Shown here one piece after another: positions 16,561-57,706 of a stretch of DNA of 61,299 nt; positions within the stretch are counted from its first letter, which is position 1; every line of letters begins with the position of its first letter. This DNA is from Crocinitomicaceae bacterium (GTDB lineage: Bacteria > Bacteroidota > Bacteroidia > Flavobacteriales_D > Crocinitomicaceae). The DNA lies in assembly GCA_020832365.1 (NCBI GenBank), contig JAFIEX010000001.1:1-61299 (forward strand), read 5' to 3'. Under the pieces are notes generated by a model, which saw nothing but the letters and a program-made list of their open reading frames with translations, was not told where the DNA came from and did no database searches. A program made the translations under genes and the position numbers.

Positions 16561-16584
16561 GACATTTTTTTGTAAAATTAAAGA

Positions 16585-24362: not shown

Positions 24363-24374
24363 AACTTTATTTAT

Positions 24375-24410
24375 TAAAAAATGAGGTGCCAAAATCCCTT
24401 GACACCTCAT
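24375..24410 (-). terminator. Hairpin plus U-tract after the CBM-protein gene (terminator or attenuator ahead of GH13)
   Basis: Minus strand: ATGAGGTG, a 14-nt loop, CACCTCAT, then T6. It lies 13 nt after stop 24424 and 12 nt before ATG 24362. Confidence 0.65.
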
Positions 24411-24423
24411 TTAATTTTGTTAT

Positions 24424-25163: not shown

Positions 25164-25186
25164 CTTAGTGTCAAAATGACAATGAT
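25164..25186. promoter_or_regulatory. Candidate operator, site C: CTTAGTGT-CAAAATG-ACAATGAT
   Basis: Read directly. Perfect left arm, partial right arm, with an embedded TGTCA-N3-TGACA. It lies between the divergent -7 boxes at 25146-25153 (-) and 25195-25202 (+). Confidence 0.6.
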
Positions 25187-28200: not shown

Positions 28201-28527
28201 ACGCCAGACGGTTGCCAAATACAAGATTCTGTCACGGTTTTTGTTGAAGAAGCTTGTGAGGAGATTCAAGCACCAACAATTTTCTCTCCAAATGGGGATG
28301 GCAATAATGATTTTTTTTGCCTATTTGGAACTTGTATCGAAAATTTGGAATTTACCATCTACAATAGATGGGGGGAAGAAATTTTTAAAACCAATGACCC
28401 AGTGGTTTGTTGGGATGGAACGTTTAAAGGAGCGCTGTTAAATAGTGGTGTTTATGTCTATCAGGTGATTGCATCTGTCAAAGGACAAAGAGTTGTGCAA
28501 TCAGGAAATGTTACTTTGGTGAGGTAG
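25267..28527 (+). CDS. Large cell-surface adhesin: two CBM-like jelly-roll modules, SprB repeats, Ig-like domains and a T9SS type B (gliding-motility) C-terminal domain
   Basis: 1086 aa. NGSFELG...NNFAIDDLAVF and NPSFGLGN...GNDFALDNFSFTG modules. Four CFGG/SNGEA...TDDNGC SprB-type repeats. C-terminus PTIFSPNGDGNNDFF...IYNRWGEEIF...WDGTFKG...GVYVYQV. Confidence 0.8.
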   Translation: MTFRKKNIFLFISTLLVCSYFFSQNLLPNGSFELGGPGNGFVVDGAGYNLVSPPFSGASNNGDFAHVTNPNDFNSSFNIGADHTTGTGFMLVYDGNTTGGQQRFYKAGNNGGGICGLTVGQSYTFSYWIKSVSNDVTNNATRADVGVAFNNVSNFQLQSGITLAPLPADGWQQVVYSFTPSFNCVNIELFNNNTNGAGNNFAIDDLAVFAPTSPVSLTYSKVFGQCASSGGFIAGYAFNGEAPFTFSLSGPTNQTSNTGYFSGLPDGTYNLTVQDNLGDQEVISNIVLQSVNTGAFFLNANSTICLGDTLILEASGGNGNYSWSSNPNDPSFLLINDSIAQVAPSQNTTYALGGIGANSNLIFNPSFGLGNSGFYSDYFISSSNPSGAQGVVGVASDPSLFFNQFDNCTDQDGNDAMLVVDGATFNTPTAIVWKQAVPVIPNTTYSFSYWATSVTNNNPAELRSSINGVIQNTTTLSNTTCNWQQITFNWNSGNDTIAIIDINNLNFEAAGNDFALDNFSFTGATNCNLTIEVVTPQNLIIAASNAPVCAGDSIVLTSNALGTADWILPSGATQQASDITLSNVSLADQGLYEVIALDSNQCQAQGTFILDVFQGPTITLTTEDVQCFGGSNGEAEATVVGANPFSFLWSAGGTANITQGLSAGSYTLEVTDDNGCISNAAFEIIEPDSLVLNIIINDSDCLIPDGSAEVIVNGGVPNYEFDWSTGGTGQIETSLGQGSYALTVTDGNGCSVTDSFTVNAANAPDVSLVSVQDVLCFGDATGNAEIQVTGGQTPYLVEWSASGQFGNFLENVLAGNYVATITDDNGCEISFSVEITQPNPINPTVEIKDSECGLNNGQISIDLAGGTPTFTYEWIPAVSNTNMANNLSADDYQVVILDANDCETIINVTVGLVGNIPLSIAPNNVTIEEGDNIQLTADIGGITHFSVIWSPESGLSCTDCLNPIASPTETTTYLVIINTPDGCQIQDSVTVFVEEACEEIQAPTIFSPNGDGNNDFFCLFGTCIENLEFTIYNRWGEEIFKTNDPVVCWDGTFKGALLNSGVYVYQVIASVKGQRVVQSGNVTLVR

Positions 28528-28567
28528 CAATTGAATTGAATTAAACGAAAACATAATAGTTAGAAAA

Positions 28568-32737: not shown

Positions 32738-32760
32738 CTTAGTGTCTTTTTGACGTTTAA
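32738..32760. promoter_or_regulatory. Candidate operator, site D: CTTAGTGT-CTTTTTG-ACGTTTAA
   Basis: Read directly. Perfect left arm. It overlaps the -33 TTG (32750-32752) of the susC promoter. Confidence 0.6.
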
Positions 32761-35800: not shown

Positions 35801-35827
35801 TCATTGAATTTGTCATTTGGATTTTAA
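32819..35827 (+). CDS. susC: SusC/RagA-family TonB-dependent outer-membrane transporter
   Basis: 1002 aa. Carboxypeptidase-regulatory-like N-domain (IKGKVIDEEGNPI), plug with a TonB-box region, SusC signature LRGGTSLNASNDPLIVVDGVP, terminal ...LNLSFGF. Confidence 0.9.
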   Translation: MKQTLLLFTVVFSLSFSMAQTSAIKGKVIDEEGNPIFNAAIVVEGEGKGAYTNMNGDYEVAGLTPGEYTVSFRSSEFKNKQETVTLGAGETLVLDVIMSTSQDLEEVMVIGYGTMRTSDLTGAATVIKEDKFFKGNVGTPEQLIMGKAAGLRVNTNDGSPGGGSTIRLRGGTSLNASNDPLIVVDGVPLDNGGIAGSPNALSLINPNDIESFVILRDASATAIYGSRGANGVILITTKKGTKKNKLNVNVQSIHNVMTVARYADVLSADEFRELVTTNGTPAQAALLGEANTDWQREVFRTAYTADNNVSVTGGINNLPYRLSFGNRYENGLLQNDRFIRNSLALSLTPQFLDGDLQIQFNNRLAHTSNVFADRGALGAAYFDPTQPVFVDSEDFGGYFEWLENNGAPNQLSPRNPVGLINQRDDRSSVLRYIGNLKATYRLPFWREVRTTVNVGTDRAESSGSVTTAASSAAGFFSQGSFNEYFQRRGNQLFEAFVNYNNGENDSRHLIDFTGGWTAQDWFTISPNLPIFNEAQDSIIQPAAANPFDTRNALLSYFGRGIYTFDDRYVLNLSVRRDGSSRFSPETRWGTFPSASAAWLISRENFMKDLKWMSMMKVRAGWGVTGQQDGIGDYAYIPNYFPGSETAQYGFGGVFYPVLRPDGFDANLRWETTSSINIGVDFGFFKDRINGSIDIYSRDTRDLLAVVPVPAGSNFTNQILTNVGAMRNEGIEFMLNAAVISKKDTRLDISGNAAYNFNTVLQLTQIEDPNSPGVLVGGIAGGIGNTIQVHQIGSPTFSFFVYEQQYDADGMPIEVGAPNPAGGTYTELDAFVDRNGDGVINIEDRYVLGQAAPLWFLGLSFDYSYKKWFASLGVRAELGGYIYNNIHSNNGTFMGINGTQGFLNNLTDLYFEEEFQTTTERQLLSDHYVERADFLRLDYISVGYDFGRLKAFKERVTFRAALTVNNVAVLTQYKGLDPEIVGGIDNNIYPRPRVFSLNLSFGF

Positions 35828-35839
35828 AGAAATAGTGTT

Positions 35840-37420
35840 ATGAAGATGAATTGGAAAATTTTAGTAGTTGGTTTGATGGCCATGAGTTTTGGACTCTTCG
35901 GATGTCGCAAGTACCTGAATCAAACCCCAAAATACGGTTTAAATGCGGAGGCCGTTTTTAGTGATCCGAATAATTATATTAATGTTTTGGCAAACCTTTA
36001 CTCTGGTTTGTCAATGACAGGCTTGGAAGGTCCCGCTGGAAATGGTGACATTGCTGGGATCGATGAAGGTTTTTCAGCATACATTCGTGTGCTTTATAAC
36101 CTACAAGTGCTTCCAACGGATGAGGTGGTTTGTGGATGGAATGACCCAGGTATTCCAGAGTTGAATAACATGCAATGGTCAGCGGAAAGTCCTTTCGTCT
36201 TGGGAATGTATTACAGAATTTACTATCAAGTGATGTTGTGTAATGAGTTTATTCGTCAAGCTAGCGAAGAGCAAATGGAAAACAGAGGATTTAGTGAAGC
36301 TGATAGAACAAAAATCAGGAGGTTTAGACAAGAGGCGAGATTCTTGCGTGCACTTAGTTATTACCACGCTTTGGATTTGTTTGGTAATGTTCCATTTGTG
36401 ACAGAAGAGAATTTGGTTGGTGCATTTCAGCCAGAGCGTATTCGCAGAGCTGAGCTTTTTGATTATATTGAATCGGAAATTTTGGATATTGTTAATGATC
36501 TTCCGTTACCTTCTCCAGCAATTTATGGGCACGCAACGCAAGATGCAGCGAGAACTTTGTTGGCTAGATTGTATTTGAATGCGGAGGTTTACACTGGTGT
36601 TCCTAGGTATGCAGATTGTGCAACGCAATGTTCTCAGGTGATTAATTCGGGTGCTTATGCTTTACAAACGAATTATCCAGACCTTTTCAAAGCTGACAAT
36701 AAATTATCTAATGAAATAATATTTCCTGTTGTGTTTGATGGTTTATATGCGCAGACTTGGGGTGGAACAACTTTCCTTGTGTGTGCTGCACTCGGAGGAA
36801 CAATGAACGCAGCCGATTTTGGTGTGAATGGTGCTTGGGCTGGTTTGCGTGTAACACCACAATTTGTAGATAAATTCCCAGACTCTACACTAGATAGCAG
36901 ATACCAATTCTGGACGGATGGTCAACAAAAGGAAATTACCTCATTGACTACTTTTTCTCACGGATATGGCTTACCGAAATATAAAAATATTCGTTCCACA
37001 GGGCAAGTAGGTTCAAACAATGGAAACACGGCGTTTGTGGATATTGACTTTCCTATGTTCCGCTTAGCAGATGTTTACTTAATGTATGCTGAATGTGCAG
37101 TTCGTGGTGCAGCTGACCCAGGTCTTGGGGCCAATTATTTTAACCAAGTGCGCGAAAGAGCCTATGGAAATGCAAGTTTCAATATCGCCAGTCCAACACT
37201 ACAAGATATTTTGGATGAAAGAGGTAGAGAGTTACATTGGGAATGTGTTAGAAGAACAGATTTAATTCGTTTTAACTTGTTCACTGAAGGAGACTATTTA
37301 TGGACATTTAAAGGAGGACCTGTAAATGGTCAAGCTGTATCTTCACATCGGAACCTTTATCCGTTGCCAACAGCTGATCTTGTTTTGAATCCTAATTTGA
37401 TACAAAATACTGGTTATTAG
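35840..37420 (+). CDS. susD: SusD/RagB-family glycan-binding lipoprotein
   Basis: 526 aa with a lipoprotein signal (LFGC). Sits directly after SusC. TPR-like helical sequence with RAEL/RFLRALSYYHALDLFGNVPF. Confidence 0.9.
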   Translation: MKMNWKILVVGLMAMSFGLFGCRKYLNQTPKYGLNAEAVFSDPNNYINVLANLYSGLSMTGLEGPAGNGDIAGIDEGFSAYIRVLYNLQVLPTDEVVCGWNDPGIPELNNMQWSAESPFVLGMYYRIYYQVMLCNEFIRQASEEQMENRGFSEADRTKIRRFRQEARFLRALSYYHALDLFGNVPFVTEENLVGAFQPERIRRAELFDYIESEILDIVNDLPLPSPAIYGHATQDAARTLLARLYLNAEVYTGVPRYADCATQCSQVINSGAYALQTNYPDLFKADNKLSNEIIFPVVFDGLYAQTWGGTTFLVCAALGGTMNAADFGVNGAWAGLRVTPQFVDKFPDSTLDSRYQFWTDGQQKEITSLTTFSHGYGLPKYKNIRSTGQVGSNNGNTAFVDIDFPMFRLADVYLMYAECAVRGAADPGLGANYFNQVRERAYGNASFNIASPTLQDILDERGRELHWECVRRTDLIRFNLFTEGDYLWTFKGGPVNGQAVSSHRNLYPLPTADLVLNPNLIQNTGY

Positions 37421-37640: not shown

Positions 37641-38201
37641 TTATTTCAGCATCCAGCTTCCGCCAACTGCTAGTACGTTTTTTAAGGCAAGGAAATCTTT
37701 GTGGTTACCTGCGTTTAGTCCGCCTGTTGGACAGAAGCTACATTGGCTGAATACTTGTCCATAAGTTTGAAGTGTCGCTATGCCACCAAATAGATTAGCA
37801 GGAAAAAACTTGAAGATTGAAACGCCATTTCCCATTCCACTAATAATTTCACTTGGCGTTACAGCGCCCGGTAAATAAGCAATACCACTGTTCTCCATTG
37901 CTTTCAACAGTTCAGGGGTGCTCCCGGGGGAAACCATAAACGAGACCGCCAAATCTTGGAGCGCTGCGATTTGATTTTTGTCGACAACAGTGCCTACACC
38001 AATTGAAATTTCTGGATAATTTACTTTCATGAATTGAATCCCCTCCAATGCATATTCCGTTCTTAAAGTGACTTCTGCACAAGAGATATTGGATTGGGCT
38101 AGCTTCTTCGCCACAGTATGCACGTCACTTTCTTGTTGTAAAGTAACCACTGGTATGATTGGATGTTGAAGTAAGATTTCTTTAATGCCGTTTTGTGTCA
38201 T
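37641..38201 (-). CDS. eda: 2-keto-3-deoxy-6-phosphogluconate (KDPG) aldolase, C-terminally short
   Basis: 186 aa. EVTLRT (catalytic Glu region), FKFFPA (Schiff-base Lys), CPTGG, and it ends at GGSWMLK. Confidence 0.85.
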   Translation of the reverse strand: MTQNGIKEILLQHPIIPVVTLQQESDVHTVAKKLAQSNISCAEVTLRTEYALEGIQFMKVNYPEISIGVGTVVDKNQIAALQDLAVSFMVSPGSTPELLKAMENSGIAYLPGAVTPSEIISGMGNGVSIFKFFPANLFGGIATLQTYGQVFSQCSFCPTGGLNAGNHKDFLALKNVLAVGGSWMLK

Positions 38202-38211
38202 GAATGTGTTT

Positions 38212-40011
38212 TTAAAATATGAAACTTGCGCCTTCCTCGCTATTGGTTACTACCTTTCTTGCAATTTGGAATAGCTCTCTTCCTACACCGTAAACATTAT
38301 CATTGTCTTTCGTGCGTGCAGGTCTATTTTCAACCCCCTCTGTTAAACAAGTTAATTCTCCTGTAACACCATCCAATCGGATCAGATCTCCAGTTTGAAT
38401 TTTTCCAATAACGCCACCATCACGTGCCTCAGGCCAAATATGTATTGCAGAAGCTACTTTTCCAGAAGCGCCAGACATTCTTCCATCTGTAACTAAGCCA
38501 ACTTTGTAACCGCGTTTTTGAAGAATCGTTAAAGAAGGGGTTAGCTGATGCAACTCAGGCATGCCATTTTGTTTAGGTCCTTGAAATGGAATAACAGCAA
38601 TGAAATCTTTGTTGAGCTCATTGTTTTTGAACGCTTTAATAAAGTCTTCTTGCTCGTCGAATACTATGGCAGGTGCTTCGATAATGCGATTTTCTTCTTC
38701 AACAGCTGAGATCTTTATGACACCTCTACCTATATTTCCTTGCATACGTTTGATACCTCCTTCTGCTTGAAAAGGTTCAGTTGCTGAGCGCAATATTGAA
38801 GTATTTAGACTTTCAGATGGTCCATTTGCCCACTTGATACCCTTTTCTCCAATCTTTGGCTCTTGAGTGTATAAATTTAGGCCATGCCCGAAAATTGTAT
38901 TTACATCATCGTGTAACAGTCCATTTTCTAAAAGTGTACGGATAACATATCCCATTCCTCCAGCTGCATGAAAGTGATTGACATCCGCTGCTCCGTTTGG
39001 GTAAACACGCGTAATCAATGGAATGACAGCTGATAAATCAGAAAAATCATCCCAGTTGATGATGATGCCTGCAGCTGCTGCAATTGCAATTAAATGAATG
39101 GTGTGGTTCGTGGATCCTCCTGTAGCCAATAAACCAATGATACCATTTACCACTGTTTTTTCACTCACTACATGGGAAATGCTGTTTTCTATGTTGCCAG
39201 ATTTGATATTTTGTAACAAAACTTTTACACCTTCCTCGTTTAACAATTCACGCAAAGGAGTGCCTGGATTAACAAAACTAGATCCGGGTAACTGCAACCC
39301 CATGATTTCCATGAGCATTTGATTACTATTGGCTGTTCCGTAAAATGTACATGTTCCTGGAGAATGGTAGGAATCTGATTCACCTTTCAAGAGTGCGGCA
39401 CGGTCAATCTTTCCTTCAGCAAAATCTTGTCGGATGCGCGCTTTTTCTTCATTGCTAATTCCTGAAGGCATAGGCCCCCCAGGCAAGAAGATAGTTGGTA
39501 AATGACCAAACTTGAGAGATGCTATCATCATCCCAGGTACAATTTTATCACAAATACCTAAATTAATGACTCCGTCATACATATTGTGTGAAAGTGAAAC
39601 AGCAGCCGACATGGCGATGACATCCCTGCTAAATAAAGAGAGTTCCATACCGACCTGCCCTTGTGTTACACCGTCACACATCGCAGGTACACCACCAGCG
39701 ACTTGTGCAGCAGCCTCATACTTATTGGCGTACTTTCTGATCATCTGCGGATAATCTTCGTAAGGCTTATGCGCTGAAAGCATGTCATTGTATGCTGTAA
39801 CAATTGCAATATTCGGTAAAATATCCTCCGCAAGTATGTTCTTATCCACTGACCCACACCCTGCAAAGCCATGCGCTAAATTTCCACAACTTAACTTGCC
39901 TCTTTTTGGTCCGGCGTCAAACTGGGCTTTTATGCGGTCAAAATATATTTTTCGATGTGCAGCACTGCGTGTTGTTATTCTATCGGTAACTTTTTGAATA
40001 ATCTCATTCAT
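38212..40011 (-). CDS. edd: 6-phosphogluconate dehydratase
   Basis: 599 aa, IlvD/Edd family. The N-terminus MNEIIQKVTDRITTRS parallels E. coli Edd. Also CDKIVPGM and TDGRMSGASG. Confidence 0.9.
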   Translation of the reverse strand: MNEIIQKVTDRITTRSAAHRKIYFDRIKAQFDAGPKRGKLSCGNLAHGFAGCGSVDKNILAEDILPNIAIVTAYNDMLSAHKPYEDYPQMIRKYANKYEAAAQVAGGVPAMCDGVTQGQVGMELSLFSRDVIAMSAAVSLSHNMYDGVINLGICDKIVPGMMIASLKFGHLPTIFLPGGPMPSGISNEEKARIRQDFAEGKIDRAALLKGESDSYHSPGTCTFYGTANSNQMLMEIMGLQLPGSSFVNPGTPLRELLNEEGVKVLLQNIKSGNIENSISHVVSEKTVVNGIIGLLATGGSTNHTIHLIAIAAAAGIIINWDDFSDLSAVIPLITRVYPNGAADVNHFHAAGGMGYVIRTLLENGLLHDDVNTIFGHGLNLYTQEPKIGEKGIKWANGPSESLNTSILRSATEPFQAEGGIKRMQGNIGRGVIKISAVEEENRIIEAPAIVFDEQEDFIKAFKNNELNKDFIAVIPFQGPKQNGMPELHQLTPSLTILQKRGYKVGLVTDGRMSGASGKVASAIHIWPEARDGGVIGKIQTGDLIRLDGVTGELTCLTEGVENRPARTKDNDNVYGVGRELFQIARKVVTNSEEGASFIF

Positions 40012-40022
40012 AACTAAAGGTT

Positions 40023-40694
40023 TTAACAGTAAAATACATAAAAATTCCTAAGGTCTTTGGTTAATTGGTAGATGGGATAGTTTTTTTGTTTAGCTTCATC
40101 AAATACGGCTTTTTTATCAGCGCCAGTAAAAAGTAGAAAAGTATGCGCGGCACTGCGCAACAACCCACTAGAACATGTAATTCTATGTTTAGGATGACTC
40201 GGCGAAGTAGCGTAAATTAATTGAAGCTCGTTCTTTGTTAAGTCATCTAGAGCAACTTGATCACCTGGAAAAAGAGAAGCCGTGTGACCATCATTGCCCA
40301 TTCCTAAAAAAGAAACATCTAATCGCTCTATAAATGGCGCATAATTAGAATTCGCTTTTAGCAGATTTTGCGCTCTATTTTCAGTATCATTCACCATTGG
40401 ATATAAATTGACTCCTGCCTCAATCGCCTTTTGCATGGCTTTCTTCAAATTTCGAAAGTTGCTGTTTTCGTCCGTTTCAGGAACAAAGCGCTCATCAACT
40501 AAACCGATATGGACATTTTTCCAGTCCAAGTCTGATTGAGCTAGTAGTTCGTACACGCCAAATGGTGTGCTCCCTCCAGATAAAAGCAATCTGGTGTCAC
40601 CAAACAAATCTATAGCTTGACGGGCTAATTCCACGATAGTATTAGCCAATTTTATTTCTAAATCACTTTTGTTTTGGAACGGATACAATTTCAT
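40023..40694 (-). CDS. pgl: 6-phosphogluconolactonase
   Basis: GMGNDGHTASLFPG motif. I prefer ATG 40694 (MKLYPFQ...). The track's ATG at 40727 is also possible. Either start overlaps the zwf 3' end. Confidence 0.85.
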   Translation of the reverse strand: MKLYPFQNKSDLEIKLANTIVELARQAIDLFGDTRLLLSGGSTPFGVYELLAQSDLDWKNVHIGLVDERFVPETDENSNFRNLKKAMQKAIEAGVNLYPMVNDTENRAQNLLKANSNYAPFIERLDVSFLGMGNDGHTASLFPGDQVALDDLTKNELQLIYATSPSHPKHRITCSSGLLRSAAHTFLLFTGADKKAVFDEAKQKNYPIYQLTKDLRNFYVFYC

Positions 40695-42171
40695 AAATAC
40701 TTGTTTTTGACCATTTTTCGTTTCCATCCATTACTAAATCGCCAGGGCCCCAAGTACCTGCTTCATAAAGGATGTTTTTTTGATTCGTTTTTTTCCAATT
40801 GTTGGTAATCGACTCTACCCAGATCCATGCTGCTTCTAACTCATCTTGGCGCATGAATAAGGTTTGGTTGCCTCTTAACATATCAATGAACAAACGCTCA
40901 TAAGCTTCTGGAAATTTTTCGTTAAATGAATCTGAGAAGTCTAATTTTAGCGCAACTGGTTTGTAACGATAACCCCCAGGACCTGGCAGTTTAGACATTT
41001 GCACAAGCTCTATTCGCTCCTCAGGTTGCAGGCGAATAATGAGTTTGTTACCTGGGATTTCTTCATTGCCATTGAATACGTTATAAGCAACGGGCTTGAA
41101 GTTTATAATAATCTCTGAGTATCGCTTGGGCATTCTTTTACCGGTTCTAAGAAAAAACGGAACGCCTTTCCATCGCCAATTATCTACAAATGCCTTGATA
41201 GCTACAAATGTTTCTGTGTTAGACGAAAACTTATCGATATCTTCAAGGTAAGAATTAATAGATACACCATCTTTTTCACCTCGTGTGTATTGTCCTCGTG
41301 CAGTATGTGTCTTTACCGTGTTTTCATCCAATAAACGGAGGGCATGAATAACTTTCAATTTTTCATCTCTCACGAAATTAGCTTCCATTCTAACGGGGGG
41401 CTCCATAGCAATAAGGCAGAGCAACTGCATTAAGTGGTTTTGCACCATGTCAAGAAGTGCACCACTTTGGTCATAATAGTCGCCCCGCTCCTCGACACCT
41501 AAACTTTCTGCTACTGTAATTTGAACAGATTCAACGTGATTACTGTTCCAAGCATTTTCAAACAAATGATTCGCAAATCGCAATACCATCAAGTTTTGCA
41601 CTGTTTCTTTCCCCAAGTAATGGTCAATGCGATAAATTTGATCTTCCGTAAAAACTTGTGTGATACTATCATTGATGGACTGCGAAGAAGCTAAACTATT
41701 GCCTAATGGCTTTTCAAGTACTACTTTGCTCAGTTGATTAACTAGTCCATGATTTTTAAGTGATTCACAAATCGGACCGAAAGCATTGGAAGGGGTAGAT
41801 AAATAAAATAGCGTTTGGTAATCTTTATTTGCATCTAATTGAACTTTTAATTGTAAATACCCCTCATCGTTATCTCCAGGTACGACAGTAAGCAACATTT
41901 TTTCTAAAAAAGCATCAATTTTTGTTTCATCTACTTGGAATTTAATTGAATCCTTAATAAACTGTTTTACGGTAGGAAAAAAGTTGGCATGTTTCTTATC
42001 TGACCTTGTTATGGCAAAAACTTTGAAGTCGACATTTAGCTGTCCGTCTAAATACCTTCTGCATATCGCCGGATAAATTTTTCTTATCGCCAAATCCCCA
42101 TCACCGCCAAAAATCACAGCATGAAAAGGTTGTATTTGCGTTTTTGTTTTTCTATATTTACGATTACTCAT
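40663..42171 (-). CDS. zwf: Glucose-6-phosphate 1-dehydrogenase
   Basis: IFGGDGDLAIRKIYPA (NADP site) and RIDHYLGKE active-site motif. The track start at 42180 is a TTG. I prefer the ATG at 42171 (MSNRKYRK...). Confidence 0.9.
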   Translation of the reverse strand: MSNRKYRKTKTQIQPFHAVIFGGDGDLAIRKIYPAICRRYLDGQLNVDFKVFAITRSDKKHANFFPTVKQFIKDSIKFQVDETKIDAFLEKMLLTVVPGDNDEGYLQLKVQLDANKDYQTLFYLSTPSNAFGPICESLKNHGLVNQLSKVVLEKPLGNSLASSQSINDSITQVFTEDQIYRIDHYLGKETVQNLMVLRFANHLFENAWNSNHVESVQITVAESLGVEERGDYYDQSGALLDMVQNHLMQLLCLIAMEPPVRMEANFVRDEKLKVIHALRLLDENTVKTHTARGQYTRGEKDGVSINSYLEDIDKFSSNTETFVAIKAFVDNWRWKGVPFFLRTGKRMPKRYSEIIINFKPVAYNVFNGNEEIPGNKLIIRLQPEERIELVQMSKLPGPGGYRYKPVALKLDFSDSFNEKFPEAYERLFIDMLRGNQTLFMRQDELEAAWIWVESITNNWKKTNQKNILYEAGTWGPGDLVMDGNEKWSKTSIYEIVSVPKQK

Positions 42172-42206: not shown

Positions 42207-42229
42207 ACTTTGTGTCAATAAAACACTAA
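42207..42229. promoter_or_regulatory. Candidate operator, site A: CTTTGTGT-CAATAAA-ACACTAAG (near-perfect palindrome)
   Basis: Read directly. The arms are reverse complements except for one position. It starts 3 nt from the zwf -7 box (42196-42203, minus strand). Confidence 0.65.
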
Positions 42230-42315
42230 GTGAATTGTTAAAAATTCTGGCTTAACAAAAGATTAATGTATTGGAAACATATTTTTACGATTGAGTAATC
42301 TAGGGCTAGAGACCA

Positions 42316-43083
42316 CTAAAAACCAAAATTATCATAACCTTCTTCAACTAATCGCTGATAGTTTTCTTCATTGAATTTATAAATGAGAGAAGGTTTATGT
42401 GGGACGCCTGTTTGTTTTTTATTGAGACTTTCAACAATGCCTAGCTTGTTTATTTTTCTGCGAAAGTTTCTTTTATCTAATGGTCTACCCAAAATAGATT
42501 CGTATAGTTTGTGCAAGTCGGAAAGTACAAATTGTGCGGGTAACAGGTTGAATCCCACTGGCTGAGTTTTTATTTTTGAGCGGAGCTGTTTTAATGCGGC
42601 TTTCAAGATTTCAAAATGATCAAATGCGAGTGTTGTTACCTCCGACACAGGCACCCAAACTGCACTTTGTGCAAACGATGAGGCTTGAGGCTTGTAAAGA
42701 TTCTTGTTTACAAGAGAGTAATAAGCAATAGTTATTACTCGTTCATCTGGGTACTGTCGAACTGATTCGAGCCATTTCTTGTCCTCTGGTTTGCTTAGTC
42801 TATCTGGAGAGCCAAAAGCACCGATTTGCTCGAGAAAAATGTCTGATAGGCCTGTGAGCTCTTTCAGAACACGCTGTGCAGCATCGTCTAAATCTTCGTC
42901 GTCGTAAATTAAATCACCAGGCAAAGCATTGTTTTCCTCCCTATCTGATACTGGTTTTCGTTCTATTAAAAGGACTTGTAAACCTTCGTTGTCAAAGCCG
43001 AAAATAACGCAATCCGTGGAGATTTTCGGGTTAATTTGATGATTTTTATTTAAACTCATGTGCGAAATTAAAAAGATTTTCAT
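42316..43083 (-). CDS. Nudix-domain transcriptional regulator (NrtR/AraR-like; degenerate Nudix box plus C-terminal winged helix)
   Basis: 255 aa. Nudix-box remnant GDLIYDDEDLDDAAQRVLKELTGL lacks two catalytic Glu of REUXEE. The C-terminal LDKRNFRRKINKLGIVE resembles the NrtR-type wHTH. Palindromic sites flank the gene. Confidence 0.7.
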   Translation of the reverse strand: MKIFLISHMSLNKNHQINPKISTDCVIFGFDNEGLQVLLIERKPVSDREENNALPGDLIYDDEDLDDAAQRVLKELTGLSDIFLEQIGAFGSPDRLSKPEDKKWLESVRQYPDERVITIAYYSLVNKNLYKPQASSFAQSAVWVPVSEVTTLAFDHFEILKAALKQLRSKIKTQPVGFNLLPAQFVLSDLHKLYESILGRPLDKRNFRRKINKLGIVESLNKKQTGVPHKPSLIYKFNEENYQRLVEEGYDNFGF

Positions 43084-43090
43084 AATTTAG

Positions 43091-43113
43091 CAAAGTGTAA
43101 TTGTGACACCAAG
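43091..43113. promoter_or_regulatory. Candidate operator, site B: CAAAGTGT-AATTGTG-ACACCAAG (palindrome)
   Basis: Read directly. It lies in the 53-bp divergent region, 8 nt from the regulator ATG (43083) and 24 nt from the kinase ATG (43137). Confidence 0.65.
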
Positions 43114-43136: not shown

Positions 43137-43985
43137 ATGATAATCATTGTTGAAAGTGGCTCTACAAAGAGTGATTGGGTAGTGCTAAAAAAGGAGGAAG
43201 CAGCGTATTATGAAACAATTGGGTTGAATCCATATTTTCATTCTGAGCAGGAGGTTAGCGCAGCAATTATGCAAAACGAATTGCTTTGTAATTTGGCAAG
43301 TGATGTGACTAAAATATTTTTCTACGGAGCGGGTTGTTCTGCTCAACATTTGAATGAAATAATTAGAAAAGGGATTGCTGCTGTTTTCCCTTATGCTTCG
43401 GTTCATGTAGATCATGATATGAAGGCTGCTGCTTACGCTACCTTCAATGGGGTGCCTGCAATTGCTTGTATTCTTGGAACAGGTTCAAATTCTTGTTTTT
43501 TTGATGGTGAAAATGTTGTAGAGGCCGTACCAGCTTTGGGTTATATTTTAGGAGATGAGGGGAGTGGTTCCTATTTTGGTAAACAAGTTTTGACAGATTT
43601 TTTATACAATCGACTACCTTTTGCCATGCAAGAGGGTTTAGTTGATTTGGGATGGAATAAAGACAAAATAATTGAATCGGTTTACAGAAAGCCGCATGCT
43701 AATGTGTTTTTAGCCTCGTTTATGCCTTTTATTGTTTCGCACAAAACACAACCGTATGTCATGGAAATGGTTAAAAACGGTTTTGCTAACTTTTTGAAAT
43801 ATCATGTGCTAAGCTTTTCAAATGGGAAAGATGTTCCTGTTAATTTCGTTGGCTCTGTAGCCCATTTCTTTCAAGAGGAGTTGAAGCTTGTTTGTGAATC
43901 AGAAGGTGTTCAATTTGGTGAAGTTGTGCGCCGTCCAATTGATGGTTTAGTGAGATTTCATTCCAAAAACATTATTAAAGTTTAA
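43137..43985 (+). CDS. BadF/BadG/BcrA/BcrD-type ATPase (N-acetylglucosamine-kinase-like sugar kinase)
   Basis: 282 aa. N-terminal IIVESGSTKSDWVV phosphate-1 motif and ILGTGSNS. First gene of the maltose operon. Confidence 0.7.
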   Translation: MIIIVESGSTKSDWVVLKKEEAAYYETIGLNPYFHSEQEVSAAIMQNELLCNLASDVTKIFFYGAGCSAQHLNEIIRKGIAAVFPYASVHVDHDMKAAAYATFNGVPAIACILGTGSNSCFFDGENVVEAVPALGYILGDEGSGSYFGKQVLTDFLYNRLPFAMQEGLVDLGWNKDKIIESVYRKPHANVFLASFMPFIVSHKTQPYVMEMVKNGFANFLKYHVLSFSNGKDVPVNFVGSVAHFFQEELKLVCESEGVQFGEVVRRPIDGLVRFHSKNIIKV

Positions 43986-43988
43986 GAT

Positions 43989-45323
43989 ATGAGAAAGTTG
44001 AAATTGCTGTTCCTATTTTTTATTTTGGTCATTAGCCAACTATTATTTGCGCAAAGTAATCAGCCTGAGTGGGCAAAAAATGCAACGATCTATGAAGTCA
44101 ATATTCGGCAATATACCAAAGAAGGAACATTTAAAGCGTTTGCTGAGCATTTGCCAAGACTAAAAGAAATGGGAGTTGATATCCTTTGGCTGATGCCTAT
44201 TCACCCAATTGGAGTAAAAAATCGCAAAGGAGAGTTAGGTAGTTATTATGCTGTGCGTGATTATAAAGGAATTAATCCAGAATTTGGAACAGCTAAAGAT
44301 TTTAGACGATTGATCAAGCAAATTCATGACTTAGACATGAAAATCATTCTGGATTGGGTCGCTAATCATAGTGCTCCAGATAATGTTTGGTTAGACCAAT
44401 GCAGACAACATTGGTACACGCTAGATTCAGCAGGCTATTTACAGCCAACTTTAGGAACTGATTGGTGGGATGTTGCGGATTTGAATTACAACAATCCCGA
44501 AATGCGAAAAGAAATGATTAACTCTTTATCCTTTTGGGTGAAGGAATTTGATATCGATGGTTTTCGTTGTGATGTTGCAGATTATGTTCCAACAGATTTT
44601 TGGGTAGATGCTCGCAAGGCTTTGGATGAAATTAAGCCAGTGTTTATGCTTGCTGAGGCTGAAAACCCAGAACATCATGATTTTGCTTTTGAAATGTCCT
44701 ACGCTTGGGAATTTCATCACATTATGAATGGTTTAGCAAGCGGAGAGAAAAGCTTGAGAGATGTACATGAGTATTTCAGAAATAACAGGTTTAAACCTGT
44801 TGATTTTCGCATGCAATTTACATCTAATCATGATGAAAATTCTTGGAATGGTACAGAGCACGAAAGATATGGCGACCAAAGACTAATGTATGCGGCATTG
44901 GCTGCTACTATTGAAGGAATGCCATTGATCTATTCTGGCCAGGAAGCAGATTTCAATCGAAGACTGAAGTTTTTCGATAAAGATGAAATTGATTGGAGTG
45001 ATTTTTCCTTAGTACCTTTCTACACCAAATTGTTTCAATTAAATAAAAACAATCAAGCACTTTGGAATGGCGAGCATGGCGGACAAGTTCGTTTTGAATC
45101 GAGCTCTGATGAGCCTAATGTGTTAGTTTTTGTTAGAGAAAAGAATGGAGACAAGGTTGTTGGTTTGTTTAATTTCTCAAGCGAAGCGCAAGAATATGTT
45201 GTGACAAAAGAATTTACTACTGGAAACTACAAGTCGCTTTTTGAGGACGATAAGTCAGTAACGATAGAACGGGCACAAATCCTATCGTTGCAGCCTTATG
45301 AATTTCAAATCTACTACAAATAA
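43989..45323 (+). CDS. GH13 alpha-amylase family enzyme (signal peptide, periplasmic)
   Basis: 444 aa. GH13 regions DWVANH, DGFRCDVADYVP, MLAEAE and FTSNHDENS. Confidence 0.85.
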   Translation: MRKLKLLFLFFILVISQLLFAQSNQPEWAKNATIYEVNIRQYTKEGTFKAFAEHLPRLKEMGVDILWLMPIHPIGVKNRKGELGSYYAVRDYKGINPEFGTAKDFRRLIKQIHDLDMKIILDWVANHSAPDNVWLDQCRQHWYTLDSAGYLQPTLGTDWWDVADLNYNNPEMRKEMINSLSFWVKEFDIDGFRCDVADYVPTDFWVDARKALDEIKPVFMLAEAENPEHHDFAFEMSYAWEFHHIMNGLASGEKSLRDVHEYFRNNRFKPVDFRMQFTSNHDENSWNGTEHERYGDQRLMYAALAATIEGMPLIYSGQEADFNRRLKFFDKDEIDWSDFSLVPFYTKLFQLNKNNQALWNGEHGGQVRFESSSDEPNVLVFVREKNGDKVVGLFNFSSEAQEYVVTKEFTTGNYKSLFEDDKSVTIERAQILSLQPYEFQIYYK

Positions 45324-45331
45324 AGAGGATA

Positions 45332-46852
45332 ATGCAAAAGGCAAAACTTTCATTTTGGCAAATATGGAACATGAGTTTCGGTTTTCTCGGAATTCAGTTT
45401 GGTTTTGCCTTGCAGAATGCTAATACATCAAGAATTTTTGAAACGCTCGGTGCAGAGGTTGAGTCTATTCCAATTCTTTGGATTGCAGCTCCTGTTACTG
45501 GTCTTATTGTTCAGCCAATTGTTGGTTATTTTAGTGATAAAACATGGACAAGGTTAGGGCGGCGAAGACCCTATTTTTTAATAGGTGCTATTCTTTCCTC
45601 AATTGCTTTGTGCGTTATGCCAAACTCACCAACTTTATGGGTTGCGGCTGGAACACTTTGGATCATGGATGCCTCGATTAATATCTCTATGGAACCTTTC
45701 CGTGCATTTGTCGGAGATAACTTACCAGAGAGTCAGCGAACAAAAGGTTTTGCCATGCAAAGCTTCTTTATTGGCACCGGCGCAGTAGTTGGTTCAATGA
45801 TGCCTTACATTTTTACGAACTATTTTGGAATTAGTAATGTTGCTCCAGAAGGGGTTATACCAGACTCTGTTAAATGGTCGTTTTATGTGGGAGCAGTTGT
45901 GTTCTTTTTATCAGTTTTATGGACGGTTATTAGTTCCAAAGAGTATTCTCCAGAACAGTTAGCACAATTTGAGGAAAATAAAGCACAGTTTCACCCTGTA
46001 ATTACGCCAGAAGAAAACATCAGAAGAATTAAGCGTTTGATGCGAATAGGTCTTGCTTTTTTTGCAGTGGGTGGGGTTTCAACGCTTATCTTATTTTTGG
46101 TTGACTTAGAAAAAGAGCTGTTTGTTTTATCCATTGGTTTATGGATTACCGGATTACTCTTTATCTTGGCCTCACTAATCCGTAAGGCAAAGGGTAGAAC
46201 GGGTTTTGTAATTATGATGACAGACTTGATATACATGCCAAACACAATGAAACAGCTAGCTTGGGTGCAGTTCTTTTCATGGTTTGCGCTCTTTTCCATG
46301 TGGATTTATACGACTCAAGCTGTCACATCGCACACTTATGGCGTCTCAGACACTACCTCTAAAATCTATAATGACGCTGCTGACTGGGTTACAGTGCTTT
46401 TTGGCGTTTACAATGGAGTTGCCGCATTAGTTGCCTTTTTGATTCCAGTTGTTGCCAAGAGGATTACACGTAAAGTGACACACTTTTTATCCTTAACTTT
46501 AGGCGGATTTGGTTTGATTTCAATATTTTTTATAATGGACCCCATATTTTTGGTGTTCTCCATGATTGGTATTGGAGTAGCATGGTCGAGTATCCTTTCA
46601 ATTCCATATGCCATGCTTGCTGGAGCGCTTCCTGCTAATAAAATGGGATATTACATGGGGGTGTTTAATTTTTTTATTGTCATACCACAGATGATTGCAG
46701 CCACAATTTTAGGATTCTTAGTAGCTAAGTTTTTCAATGGGATGCCAATTTATGCTTTGATACTTGGAGGGGTTGCAATGATTATTGCGGGATTACTCAC
46801 TTTGAGAGTGAGTGACGGAGCAACCATTGAATTGAAAGAAGAAACAGTTTGA
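45332..46852 (+). CDS. MFS/GPH-type sugar:cation symporter (maltose/maltodextrin importer candidate)
   Basis: 506 aa with about 12 TMs. GRRRPYFLIGA motif, typical of sucrose/maltose-type MFS carriers. Confidence 0.8.
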   Translation: MQKAKLSFWQIWNMSFGFLGIQFGFALQNANTSRIFETLGAEVESIPILWIAAPVTGLIVQPIVGYFSDKTWTRLGRRRPYFLIGAILSSIALCVMPNSPTLWVAAGTLWIMDASINISMEPFRAFVGDNLPESQRTKGFAMQSFFIGTGAVVGSMMPYIFTNYFGISNVAPEGVIPDSVKWSFYVGAVVFFLSVLWTVISSKEYSPEQLAQFEENKAQFHPVITPEENIRRIKRLMRIGLAFFAVGGVSTLILFLVDLEKELFVLSIGLWITGLLFILASLIRKAKGRTGFVIMMTDLIYMPNTMKQLAWVQFFSWFALFSMWIYTTQAVTSHTYGVSDTTSKIYNDAADWVTVLFGVYNGVAALVAFLIPVVAKRITRKVTHFLSLTLGGFGLISIFFIMDPIFLVFSMIGIGVAWSSILSIPYAMLAGALPANKMGYYMGVFNFFIVIPQMIAATILGFLVAKFFNGMPIYALILGGVAMIIAGLLTLRVSDGATIELKEETV

Positions 46853-46857
46853 AAAAA

Positions 46858-47490
46858 ATGAGAAAAGCAAAAGCATTAATATTTGATTTGGACGGCGTCG
46901 TTGTAACCACAGAACATAATCACTTTGTTGCATGGAAGAGAACAGCGGATCGCTTGGGGATTAATTTTTCTGAAAGAGAAAATGAAGCACTTAAGGGTCT
47001 TAGCCGCGTAGATTCGCTTCGTAAAATACTGGAAATTGGTAATAAGCAAATTGAAGAAAATTATTTTGAAGAGCTTTTGGTTGAGAAAAATAATTTTTAC
47101 AAGGCTTCTATTGCTCAATTAGACAGATCTGCGTGTCTACCTGGTGTGTTAAATTTACTATCAAAAGCCAAAGAAGAGGGTATTCCCATGGCTGTCGGTT
47201 CTTCTAGCAAGAATGCAAAGTTTATTTTAGATCGTTTAAATCTTTCGGATTATTTCCAAATCATAGTGGATGGTAATATGGTTGAACACCCAAAACCCCA
47301 CCCTGAGGTGTTTTTACAAGCCGCCGAAGCGATGAAGGTAGTGCCTAGTGAAAGCATTGTCTTTGAAGATGCAGAAAGCGGGATTAAGGCAGCTAAAGCA
47401 GGTGGATTTTATGCTATCGCAGTTGGTAATCCAAATATTGCAGCGCTAGCAGATGAGTTTTTAGAAAGTTTAGAAGAATTTAAGATATAG
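46858..47490 (+). CDS. pgmB: Beta-phosphoglucomutase
   Basis: HAD motifs FDLDGVVV, GSSSKNA and FEDAESGIKAAKAGG. The track start at 46849 is a TTG. I prefer ATG 46858 (MRKAKALIFDLDG). Confidence 0.85.
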   Translation: MRKAKALIFDLDGVVVTTEHNHFVAWKRTADRLGINFSERENEALKGLSRVDSLRKILEIGNKQIEENYFEELLVEKNNFYKASIAQLDRSACLPGVLNLLSKAKEEGIPMAVGSSSKNAKFILDRLNLSDYFQIIVDGNMVEHPKPHPEVFLQAAEAMKVVPSESIVFEDAESGIKAAKAGGFYAIAVGNPNIAALADEFLESLEEFKI

Positions 47491-47493
47491 TTT

Positions 47494-49782
47494 ATGCGAA
47501 ATTTATTTGATATCCACGATTGGAAAATTGTAGAAACTTCTTTCGATCCGAAAAAGCAGATGCAAGCTGAAAGTATCTTCAGCATTGGTAATGGGAGTTT
47601 TGGGCAACGCGCTAATTTCGAAGAGCGCTATTCTGGTGAATCACTGCAAGGAAGTTATGTTGGTGGGGTTTATTACCCAGATAAAACAAGAGTGGGTTGG
47701 TGGAAAAATGGCTATCCGGAATATTTTGCAAAGGTATTAAATGCTTGTAATTGGATAGGTATTGACATCGAAATTCAAGGAGAGTCAGTTGATTTAAACC
47801 ATGCAACGGTGCTGTCTTTCTATCGCGAGCTGGACATGCAAAGTAGCACTTTATCTCGGAAAGTGACTCTCCGATTGAAAAGCGGGAAAGAATTAGAGAT
47901 TAACTCAATTCGTTTTTGCTCTATGCATCGTAATGAAATAGCTGCAATTTCTTATTCCGTTAAGCCCCTAAATTTTAGTGGTAATGTCAAATTCACACCT
48001 TATTTGGATAATAACGTCTCTAATGATGATGCCAATTATGATGAGTTTTTCTGGGAAGAAGAGAGCCAAAAAGCAGGAAATAAAAAAGCTTTTGTTTGCA
48101 GCAAAACCAAAAAGACCAATTTCCATGTGGCAACTGCCATGCGTATTTCTTTTTGGAAAGAAAAAGAATTGCAAGAAATCCATCCGAATTTTGCAACAAA
48201 ATCTCTATATGCCGAGAATAGTTTTGAAACTTACTTAGAGATAGGAACAACTTACACTTTAAAAAAATATGTGGCGGTAGCTTCTACTTTGAACCACTCT
48301 GAGTTTTCCCTAGTTACGCATGCCATTAACCAAGTAAAATCGGCTTATTTAACTGGCTTTGATGATCTACTAGAAGAACATAAGGTTGCATGGTCAAATA
48401 TTTGGGAAAATGCCGATATTCAAATTGATGGAGATGTTGCGGCACAACAAGGTATTCGTTTTAATATCTTTCACCTCTATCAAACTTATACTGGTACAAA
48501 TGAAAAACTGAACATCGGTCCCAAAGGCTTTACAGGTGAAAAGTACGGGGGCGCTACTTATTGGGACACAGAGGCCTATTGTTTGCCTTTTTACTTAAAA
48601 ACTGCTGATCCCAAAATTGCTAGACAATTGTTGATTTATCGTTATAATCAACTGGATAAAGCAATTGAAAATGCCGAGAAATTAGGCTTTGTAAATGGTG
48701 CAGCATTGTATCCTATGGTAACGATGAATGGAGAAGAGTGTCACAATGAATGGGAAATCACTTTTGAAGAAATTCACCGAAATGGTGCTATCGCTTTTGC
48801 CATTTACAATTATGTAAGACACACAGGAGACCATGAATATTTAAAAGACTATGGACGCCCGGTGTTAAACGCCATTGCCCGTTTTTGGTTCCAAAGATTT
48901 AATTGGTCGAAGGCCAAACAAGCCTATGTGATGTTAGGTGTAACCGGACCAAATGAGTATGAAAACAACGTCAATAACAATTGGTATACCAATTATATTG
49001 CAAAATGGTGTTTGAGTTATGCTTTGGAAGTGGAAGAGTCATGGGCGAAAAAAGACAAGGCATTACTTTCAAATCAAGAGTTGTTCCAATGGAAAGAAAT
49101 GTTGGATAAAATTTACTTCCCAAAACTAGAAGGTACGAATATTTTCTTGCAACAAGATGGATTCTTAGATAAAGAATTACTCAACGCAAGCGATATTCCT
49201 GATGCGCAACGACCAATTAATCAGCATTGGTCATGGGATAGAATTTTGCGCTCTGTATTTATAAAACAAGCTGATGTTTTGCAGGGGATTTACTTGTTTG
49301 AAGACCATTTTGATTTGGATGTCATCAGAGATAATTTTGATTTCTATGAACCTAAAACTGTTCATGAATCCTCTTTATCGCCATGTGTACACGCTATTAT
49401 CGCTGCTAAAATTGGTAACCTAGATAAAGCTTATGAAATGTATTTGCGCACAGCCAGATTGGACTTAGATGATTATAATCATGAAGCAGACGAAGGATTA
49501 CATATAACAAGTATGGCAGGAACTTGGATGAGCATGGTTGAAGGTCTTGCAGGAGTTCGAGTTTATGAAGACCATGTTTTAATTGACCCGAAAATTCCGG
49601 CCACTTGGAAAAGTTACAGTTTTAAAATTAGATTTAGAAATAATCCTATTCAAGTGACTGTTAATCAAGAGGGCTATGTGTTGGAAAATTTCGGCAATGA
49701 TAGTATTACTTATACTTACAAGGGAAAGAAAATTGAATTATGTGCTAATCAAACATCTAATTCTTTACAATTAATAGTTTAG
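47494..49782 (+). CDS. GH65 maltose (alpha-glucoside) phosphorylase
   Basis: 762 aa, the length and layout of GH65. GVTGPNEYENNVNNN catalytic-acid region. Adjacent to pgmB, as in known maltose phosphorylase operons. Confidence 0.9.
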   Translation: MRNLFDIHDWKIVETSFDPKKQMQAESIFSIGNGSFGQRANFEERYSGESLQGSYVGGVYYPDKTRVGWWKNGYPEYFAKVLNACNWIGIDIEIQGESVDLNHATVLSFYRELDMQSSTLSRKVTLRLKSGKELEINSIRFCSMHRNEIAAISYSVKPLNFSGNVKFTPYLDNNVSNDDANYDEFFWEEESQKAGNKKAFVCSKTKKTNFHVATAMRISFWKEKELQEIHPNFATKSLYAENSFETYLEIGTTYTLKKYVAVASTLNHSEFSLVTHAINQVKSAYLTGFDDLLEEHKVAWSNIWENADIQIDGDVAAQQGIRFNIFHLYQTYTGTNEKLNIGPKGFTGEKYGGATYWDTEAYCLPFYLKTADPKIARQLLIYRYNQLDKAIENAEKLGFVNGAALYPMVTMNGEECHNEWEITFEEIHRNGAIAFAIYNYVRHTGDHEYLKDYGRPVLNAIARFWFQRFNWSKAKQAYVMLGVTGPNEYENNVNNNWYTNYIAKWCLSYALEVEESWAKKDKALLSNQELFQWKEMLDKIYFPKLEGTNIFLQQDGFLDKELLNASDIPDAQRPINQHWSWDRILRSVFIKQADVLQGIYLFEDHFDLDVIRDNFDFYEPKTVHESSLSPCVHAIIAAKIGNLDKAYEMYLRTARLDLDDYNHEADEGLHITSMAGTWMSMVEGLAGVRVYEDHVLIDPKIPATWKSYSFKIRFRNNPIQVTVNQEGYVLENFGNDSITYTYKGKKIELCANQTSNSLQLIV

Positions 49783-49784
49783 TT

Positions 49785-52487: not shown

Positions 52488-53541
<1,054 letters not shown>

Positions 53542-57580: not shown

Positions 57581-57706
57581 GTTCACCAGTTGAATGAATG
57601 CATAAAATTAGATGGATTCTTGGAAATAACAGCTCTAAAAATCAATTTTTAAAAAAAGCGCGCAACTTTTTTGCAGAAATAAATGTTTTGTTCGACACAA
57701 CTTTAG

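Follow-up and report, generated by a model that had tools for sequence, protein, structure and literature searches.

A predicted Nudix-type repressor and its candidate operators at an alpha-glucan and Entner–Doudoroff locus of Crocinitomicaceae

In a Crocinitomicaceae bacterium (GenBank assembly GCA_020832365.1), the first 61,299 nucleotides of contig JAFIEX010000001.1, referred to throughout as the window, hold a block of genes for alpha-glucan use, the Entner–Doudoroff (ED) pathway and glyceraldehyde-3-phosphate dehydrogenase (GAPDH), within which a minus-strand gene encodes a protein with a Nudix-like domain and a C-terminal winged helix. A preliminary description of this DNA had put the protein forward as the likely regulator of a starch-ED regulon, and it is called the regulator here (Table 1). 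Among all open reading frames (ORFs) of at least 150 amino acids (aa) between 21.6 and 54 kb no other transcription factor was found, in keeping with the earlier statement that this is the only DNA-binding protein of the block. There is no intergenic gap in this region of more than about 220 bp, and the sole other DNA-binding protein in the window is a sigma-70 factor at 10070-10936.

The regulator gene and its protein

Judged by its sequence and its modelled fold, the regulator combines a Nudix domain with an NrtR/AraR-type winged helix and belongs to the AraR/XylR branch within the NrtR family. Pfam hidden Markov models recognise a NUDIX domain at residues 22-161 (E 1.8e-9), the NrtR winged-helix domain (NrtR_WHD, PF21906) at residues 177-237 (E 2.8e-23) and AraR_C (PF19368; E 8e-12), all above their gathering scores. 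In a phmmer search against the PDB the best match is BtAraR (5bs6; E 2e-46), the L-arabinose repressor of Bacteroides thetaiotaomicron, with Shewanella NrtR far behind (E 3e-13), and the HMMER alignment of the regulator to BtAraR gives 41.7% identity over 211 columns. In an AlphaFold2 model (predicted local distance difference test score 88.6, predicted template modelling score 0.85) a Nudix fold is joined by a long linker helix to a winged helix-turn-helix (HTH). Foldseek places BtAraR first among the matches to this model (5bs6/5dd4/5deq; E 8e-23, template modelling score 0.76), followed by the Shewanella oneidensis NrtR (SoNrtR) and NadQ, with 3gz6 and 7q92 among the matched structures. The architecture and the NrtR/AraR kinship proposed beforehand are thus borne out by the family models, the predicted structure and the structure search.

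Translation most likely starts at the ATG at 43059 (Met9 of the longest ORF), because this position is the start in all but 2 of 24 aligned homologs, the regulator genes called in relatives at 86% and 76% identity begin there (247 and 245 aa, respectively), and the upstream ATG of the 86% relative is out of frame. The 255-aa reading frame probably arose simply from taking the longest ORF. The preliminary description had drawn the feature as far as 43113, but the stretch past 43083 is the palindrome described below as operator B and is not coding.

Residues were compared through the HMMER alignment to BtAraR, the numbering of which was checked: every BtAraR residue named in the structural study (PMC4666351) falls on the stated letter. 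In this comparison the Nudix box of the regulator, GDLIYDDEDLDDAAQRVLKELTGL, reads D57-x5-E63-x7-R71-V72-L-K-E75-L76-T-G78-L79. Its RE to RV and EE to EL changes, two glutamate losses that the preliminary description had read correctly from this same string, are identical to those of BtAraR, and a third deviation can be added, as the canonical first glycine is Asp57, with G56 one residue out of register. The degenerate box (RE to RV or RI, EE to EL, G to D or N) is present in all 81 orthologs examined, with V72 occupied by V or I and L76 fixed; two of the three catalytic glutamates and the signature glycine are gone in every one. Catalysis thus appears to have been lost from the N-terminal Nudix-like domain, and since the substitutions are fixed in the whole set, this loss would be old.

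The triad that binds arabinose in BtAraR, R34, R86 and H131, corresponds to R42, R95 and H156 of the regulator and is kept in 76, 81 and 81 of the 81 orthologs, respectively. Hydrophobic residues that give the arabinose pocket its form are changed in the clade (F36 to P/E/S/Q, G48 to D/N and F49 to L), and a helix of 15-16 residues is inserted after R95 (residues 96-111, with invariant D101, W104 and R109). Two invariant basic residues, R109 and R115, lie in or beside this helix. The insertion was considered as a hallmark of the clade and rejected as such, a similar 'D..W' insertion being present in many relatives of 40-48% identity, and a stricter motif that includes R109 is found in only about 11 of the 150 best representatives.

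The DNA-reading BtAraR residues K179, R180, N181 and R183 are K204, R205, N206 and R208 in the regulator and invariant in the 81 orthologs. K184 of the BtAraR helix is replaced by R209, and K204 and R205 of its wing by H229 and K230, replacements which are themselves invariant within the clade. In BtAraR, the GTGT specificity derives from K179, R180, N181, K184, K204 and R205; the crystal operator AAGTGTTACTTTTACAC has the form GTGT-N7-ACAC, its GTGT motif being defined by the base-contacting residues, and the co-crystallised 27-bp duplex, GCAAAAGTGTTACTTTTACACCCATGC, has the same architecture as the palindromes of the window (PMC4666351). By homology with BtAraR, the regulator would bind its sites as a dimer.

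Table 1. Positions of the regulator, its predicted operators and the candidate target genes in the window (PWM, score against the position weight matrix; GH, glycoside hydrolase family; MFS, major facilitator superfamily; T9SS, type IX secretion system; PUL, polysaccharide utilisation locus)
Feature	Position	Strand	Description
Regulator gene	42316..43059	-	247 aa from the conserved Met; longest ORF up to 43083, 255 aa
Regulator domains (255-aa numbering)			Nudix-like effector domain ~17-145; linker helix 156-173; winged HTH 187-237
Predicted operator A	42208..42230		CTTTGTGTCAATAAAACACTAAG; zwf promoter; exact core; PWM 24.4, best in window
Predicted operator B	43091..43113		CAAAGTGTAATTGTGACACCAAG; divergent regulator/kinase intergenic region; exact GTGT-N7-ACAC; PWM 19.9
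Candidate gap operator	52491..52513		CTAAGCGTTTAATAGACACTAAC; 35 nt upstream of gap; one core mismatch; PWM 15.9
Candidate operator at 25164	25164..25186		Between secreted GH13 amylase operon (-) and T9SS protein-GH13-GH31 genes (+); PWM 13.4
Weak candidate susC operator	32738..32760		CTTAGTGTCTTTTTGACGTTTAA; 58 nt upstream of susC; PWM 9.5
Kinase operon	43137..52397	+	BadF-type sugar kinase (putative glucokinase), GH13 amylase, MFS sugar transporter, beta-phosphoglucomutase, GH65 maltose phosphorylase, T9SS-secreted GH13
zwf-pgl-edd-eda (ED) operon	37641..42171	-	Downstream of the regulator; assigned by NCBIfam and Pfam
gap	52549..53541	+	Type I GAPDH; candidate target, after the kinase operon
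susC-susD of alpha-glucan PUL	32819..37420	+	Candidate target
T9SS type-B SprB-repeat protein, GH13 cyclomaltodextrinase-like enzyme, GH31 alpha-glucosidase	25267..32712	+	Possible target via the 25164 site
T9SS-tailed protein and secreted GH13 amylase (932 aa)	21612..25122	-	Possible target via the 25164 site

Predicted operators in the window and in related loci

Exact GTGT-N7-ACAC palindromes occur twice in the window (0.7 expected), once on either side of the regulator gene, and the same two sites are the highest-scoring matches to a symmetrised 23-bp position weight matrix (PWM) built from such sites of related loci. The preliminary description had rightly singled them out as the two best palindromes flanking the gene. 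Operator B starts 7 nt above the ATG at 43083 (31 nt above that at 43059), and operator A ends 85 nt below the stop codon. In the direction of the kinase operon, operator B directly follows the -7-like box TAATTTAG of that operon's promoter; read towards the regulator gene, it precedes the -7-like box of the regulator promoter by about 20 nt. Operator A lies 3 nt upstream of the zwf -7 box TATATTTG in the minus-strand reading.

Five matches in the window reach a PWM score of at least 11, compared with 0.2 in shuffled sequence. The candidate gap operator, which departs from the core at one position, is replaced by a perfect core at the same position in a 97% relative, and at the weak susC candidate a -7 box of the same sequence as that of zwf begins 35 nt after the start of the site. 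Together with the site at 25164, these matches indicate that gap, and probably two further promoters (25164 and 32738), belong to the candidate regulon. Two other matches were treated as chance: one at 158-180 (12.6), which most probably falls within a minus-strand gene continuing past the start of the window (positions 1-1054 are without a listed ORF of at least 60 aa, and a minus-strand ATG is present at 1050), and one at 42410-42432 (9.5) inside the coding sequence of the regulator. Rfam and tRNA scans of the window returned nothing.

The consistency of the operators across genomes is the strongest result of the analysis. Scanning one genome per GTDB species yielded 80 loci (1.27 Mb) with a regulator protein of 54-67% identity, almost all of them from Crocinitomicaceae/Cryomorphaceae metagenome-assembled genomes (MAGs). 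These loci contain 88 exact GTGT-N7-ACAC sites, of which 73 lie in the regulator/kinase intergenic region, where a site is present in 73 of the 80 loci, and five more lie upstream of gap; the sequence around the regulator/kinase sites has diverged into 43 distinct 25-mers. A PWM site of at least 10 is found upstream of zwf in 16 of 16 loci, of susC in 12 of 12 and of gap in 9 of 11, that is, in 37 of the 39 regions tested, compared with 3 of 271 upstream regions of nine internal operon genes taken as a control. Position is conserved as well, the zwf operator being 15-30 nt upstream of its gene in 15 of 16 loci (221 nt in L025) and the susC operator at the same offset in all 12. Whereas the regulator/kinase site has a perfect core, the zwf operators are nearly always GTGT-N7-ACAT and those of susC ATGT/ACGT-N7-ACAC. 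Such kept half-site mismatches could provide graded affinity and hence staggered de-repression.

Neighbouring genes in the 80 loci were located by tblastn with 16 sugar-pathway proteins of the window as queries. In every locus with 1 kb or more of upstream flank the regulator and kinase genes are divergent, and in most loci GH13, (MFS), pgmB, GH65 and GH13-T9SS genes come after the kinase gene, whereas zwf-pgl-edd-eda adjoins the regulator on its downstream side in only 16 of the 80. Because of this difference, it is the divergent kinase (plus maltose) operon, and not the ED genes, that is the constant partner of the regulator. The 97% relative has the same synteny as the window, the ED genes are absent from the regulator position in the 86% and 76% relatives, and in three or four loci susD-susC comes directly after the regulator. 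In three Crocinitomix loci (L018, L024 and L038) the neighbours are only kinase, gap and ED genes, without maltose genes. The starch-ED regulon of the preliminary description is supported by the sites upstream of zwf and susC, but its conserved core lies in the kinase/maltose operon, and gap is a further candidate target.

Six of the loci (L004, L006, L009, L041, L064 and L073) have Crocinitomicaceae synteny and regulators of 59-64% identity, yet come from MAGs with labels such as 'Akkermansia sp.', 'Sphingomonadales', 'Chitinophaga pinensis' and 'Saprospira sp.'; these contigs are probably mis-binned or mislabelled.

A paralogous NrtR/AraR-like regulator of 232 aa, about 41% identical to the window protein, is encoded at L018:3167-3865 (-) within a GH3/GH16/T9SS cluster of beta-glucan or laminarin type, with a GTGT-type site similar to the operators above at L018:3033-3055, and L024 has the same paralog. 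This suggests that the AraR-like family is spread over several glycan loci in Crocinitomicaceae.

Proposed mechanism and alternative readings

Promoters of Bacteroidota carry a -7 box of consensus TAnnTTTG, drawn from Bacteroides and Flavobacterium promoters. Counted from the start of the operator, this box begins after 26-27 nt at zwf, after 33-36 nt at susC and after 26-36 nt at gap (five loci with an exact box), and the 25164 site has a -7 box 31-33 nt from its start on both sides. In the kinase operon the box ends exactly where the operator starts. In these positions the operators lie over the -33 region or over the point where transcription begins, which is the geometry of a repressor, and the regulator would be expected to act as one. 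At its own gene the -7-like box (TAATTTCG in the window, 43059-43083; TAATTTTG in the 86% relative, L084:9990-10010) ends 3 nt before the conserved start codon, an abutment which suggests that the regulator mRNA is leaderless. Autoregulation is plausible, if less clear than control of the other targets.

In the mechanism that we propose, the C-terminal winged helix would bind palindromes of 21-23 bp with the form GTGT-N7-ACAC. Without inducer, the regulator would sit over the -33/-7 promoter elements at zwf-pgl-edd-eda, susCD, gap and the amylase genes and over the transcription start of the kinase-GH13-MFS-pgmB-GH65 operon, thereby blocking RNA polymerase, and would probably repress its own gene as well. 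The Nudix-like domain would serve as the sensor, in which binding of a glucose-type sugar rotates the winged helices and frees the DNA, as L-arabinose does in BtAraR. From sequence comparison and structure modelling we consider it likely that the protein binds DNA and represses these operons, and we have greater confidence in the part of the model that concerns the regulator and its operators, taken by itself, than in the whole.

The identity of the effector is a more evenly balanced matter. D-glucose or maltose, both products of the regulated pathway, would be favoured because the sugar triad is retained, BtAraR senses a free sugar and the invariant neighbour is a sugar kinase; the Crocinitomix loci with kinase, gap and ED genes but without maltose genes would make glucose the common denominator. 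We place this proposal at about the midpoint between belief and disbelief.

The foremost alternative leaves the repressor and its operators in place and assigns the role of effector to a phosphorylated intermediate, namely glucose-6-phosphate, 6-phosphogluconate or KDPG (2-keto-3-deoxy-6-phosphogluconate), so that the protein would be a functional analog of HexR. HexR, an RpiR-family protein of Pseudomonas and Shewanella, is a KDPG-responsive repressor of zwf-pgl-eda, edd-glk and gap. The candidate regulon described here (zwf, pgl, edd, eda, sugar kinase and gap) has the composition of the classical Pseudomonas HexR regulon, with one repressor coupling the same functions, and the invariant R109 and R115 could bind phosphate. 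The likeness is one of functional analogy only, as HexR has an unrelated fold (HTH_6 plus SIS) and no HexR-like gene is present in the window, where the SIS protein at 56996-57586 has SIS-domain Pfam matches only, without an HTH. A phosphorylated effector fits poorly with the genomic context, because most loci, including those of the 86% and 76% relatives, have no adjacent ED genes while the kinase/maltose operon is present throughout. In SoNrtR the phosphates of ADP-ribose (ADPR) are bound by N43, K76 and R98, which are P44, L76 and D113 in the regulator (aligned transitively through BtAraR), and BtAraR, the characterised relative in the branch, senses an unphosphorylated monosaccharide (PMC4666351). 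This alternative seems to us unlikely, though it is the one that deserves most attention.

Less likely again is that the regulator controls only itself and the divergent kinase/maltose operon, the zwf, susC and gap sites being read by another factor such as an AraR-like paralog. The family does include paralogs with an identical recognition helix, and the half-site mismatch that the zwf and susC sites usually carry is not seen in the autoregulatory site. However, the zwf, susC and gap sites are found exactly where these genes cluster with the regulator, the zwf site of the window has a perfect core and the best score of all, and no second regulator gene is present in the 61-kb window.

That the regulator is instead a transcriptional activator is improbable. 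Starch PULs in Bacteroides are under the activator SusR (PMC3878776), and at the regulator's own promoter the site does lie further upstream, as an activator site might, some 20 nt before the -7-like box. Elsewhere the sites coincide in part with the -33 region, as at zwf, susC and gap, or with the transcription start, as in the kinase operon, and both BtAraR and NrtR proteins are repressors that lose their affinity for DNA on ligand binding (PMC4666351, PMC2330246).

Finally, a canonical NrtR (responsive to ADPR or NAD and governing NAD metabolism) or an active Nudix hydrolase, as implied by the public names of the protein, '8-oxo-dGTP diphosphatase' and 'NUDIX hydrolase', is rejected as highly improbable: the NCBIfam NrtR equivalog model (NF050029) is the best family match but scores 123.9 bits against a cut-off of 400, the ADPR-binding and catalytic residues are replaced as described, a DNA-binding domain takes up about one third of the protein according to both Pfam and the AlphaFold2 model, and a Pfam scan of window ORFs of at least 150 aa detected no nad, pnc or prs genes, the 80 loci having been searched only for the sugar-pathway homologs, each of which was found there.

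Several observations weigh against repression of the whole set of operons by a sugar-responsive regulator. The DNA-contacting wing residues are unlike those of BtAraR, while the predicted operator keeps the GTGT core. The pocket differences (F36P, G48D/N and F49L) and the helix inserted after R95 mean that the ligand is not readable by homology. The kinase is a BadF-family match only, and its glucokinase role comes from context; ED adjacency is patchy. Of the operator statistics, the PWM was trained on sites preselected for an exact core, many of the 80 loci are mutually related (regulator identity 50-100%), and when one mismatch is allowed in the 8-bp core its matches in the window alone are not significantly enriched (23 matches, 14.3 expected), for which reason the case for the operators rests on the exact sites, their flanking bases, their position and their orthology. 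Paralogs share the DKRNFR recognition helix, and some sites could belong to a paralog elsewhere in the genome.

Comparison with known systems and further observations

The closest characterised relative is BtAraR (BT0354; PDB 5bs6/5dd4/5ddg/5deq; PMC4666351), which resembles the regulator in its two-domain fold, as its top match in both sequence and structure, and in the RV/EL glutamate losses, the R/R/H sugar triad, the DKRNFR recognition helix and the GTGT-N7-ACAC operator architecture. It also controls monosaccharide catabolic genes together with susC/susD genes of a PUL. The two differ in the genes concerned, those of arabinose in BtAraR and here the candidate targets for uptake of alpha-glucan and maltose, for a sugar kinase and for the ED pathway together with gap, and in the arrangement of the operators, tandem there and single here. 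To the differences in pocket, inserted helix and wing already given can be added G89D/E, and the host is a member of the Bacteroidales in one case and of the Crocinitomicaceae in the other. The regulator accordingly falls outside the AraR orthologous group: a Pfam scan of the window detected no ara genes, the neighbours that the tblastn search for sugar-pathway homologs identified in the 80 loci belong to alpha-glucan use and the ED pathway or are gap, the pocket positions Y5, F36, G48 and F49 are not kept as a set (F36, G48 and F49 are changed), and identity is limited to the value given above.

BtXylR (BT0791) and the NrtR-like xylose regulators of Flavobacteriia and gammaproteobacteria termed 'Bacteroidetes-1a/1c' (PMC2330246, PMC4666351), compared here by description only, belong to the same sugar-responsive branch and are likewise predicted repressors adjoining their catabolic genes, which are for a pentose (xylose) rather than for hexose and alpha-glucan use. 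NrtR proper, the ADPR-responsive NAD-gene repressor of Shewanella oneidensis (SO1979; PDB 3gz5/3gz6/3gz8), has the same family architecture, and R95 and H156 of the regulator match BtAraR residues that are spatially conserved with the ADPR site of SoNrtR (PMC4666351). It differs in its low identity (23-24%), in the equivalog score and NAD-gene context dealt with above and in its phosphate- and adenine-binding ADPR residues, which are replaced in the regulator. By sequence, the regulator would thus be placed in the AraR/XylR-type branch, outside both NrtR proper and the AraR orthologous group, with a new specificity and a new regulon.

Loci of comparable content are regulated by unrelated families in other Bacteroidota. 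The gapA-pfkA-GH-pgmB-MFS-lacI-susCDE cluster of Gramella forsetii has a LacI-family regulator (PMC4069401), and Bacteroides starch loci have SusR, a membrane-spanning activator that senses periplasmic maltose (PMC3878776). These regulators hold the equivalent place in loci with a maltose phosphorylase route, an MFS transporter, susCD and glycolytic genes, whereas the protein here is a cytoplasmic Nudix-type one and ED genes take the place of pfkA. The Pfam scan of the window found no SusR- or LacI-type gene. Among the NrtR-family sugar regulators described so far, AraR acts on arabinose genes and XylR on xylose genes, in Bacteroidota as well as in a small number of gammaproteobacteria (PMC2330246, PMC3878776, PMC4666351), and full-text searches of a limited body of literature revealed no regulator of NrtR or Nudix type with a link to starch or maltose, to alpha-glucan PULs or to ED genes. 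On both counts the result agrees with the preliminary description, which had put the protein in the place of SusR- or LacI-type regulators and knew of no Nudix-type starch-ED regulator.

From these comparisons a broader proposal can be made, more tentatively than that on the effector and with belief falling slightly short of even. A single cytoplasmic Nudix-type repressor may be the master switch of hexose catabolism in Crocinitomicaceae/Cryomorphaceae, sensing free glucose or maltose through a remodelled AraR-like pocket and acting through one operator type on SusCD uptake, secreted and periplasmic amylases, the maltose-phosphorylase route, the sugar kinase, GAPDH and the ED pathway in its entirety. 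Such a repressor would replace the SusR/LacI-type PUL regulators and the HexR-type ED regulators at once, and would be part of a wider, so far unrecognised AraR-like radiation over glycan loci, to which the paralog in the GH3/GH16 beta-glucan cluster would also belong.

Such a system would be a natural but previously undescribed extension of the AraR paradigm, in that it would widen the range of sugars covered by the AraR/XylR branch, so far pentoses, to include hexoses, and would connect a starch PUL of Bacteroidota to the ED pathway in a concrete and testable way. PUL regulation outside gut Bacteroides is largely unknown, and many PULs have been suggested to be unregulated, as no recognisable regulator gene was seen (PMC10108472). 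Under its public names the regulator would be missed by surveys for regulator genes near PULs. The operator motif would in turn enable prediction of the regulon for alpha-glucan and glucose catabolism in the abundant freshwater and marine Crocinitomicaceae.

Among the ED genes of the window, edd, zwf, pgl (equivalogs) and eda (subfamily TIGR01182) all score above their NCBIfam cut-offs (edd 931 bits, cut-off 708). Separate from gap, a second, long-form GAPDH-like protein of 483 aa, with GAPDH domains at 133-457, is encoded at 11012-12463 (+), directly downstream of the sigma-70 (RpoD-like) gene, which is also on the plus strand. Further along, an MbnP/MbnH-type pair of genes at 15643-18428 (-), one for an MbnP-family protein and the other for a di-haem cytochrome c peroxidase/MauG-like protein, adjoins a gene of the fatty-acid hydroxylase family.

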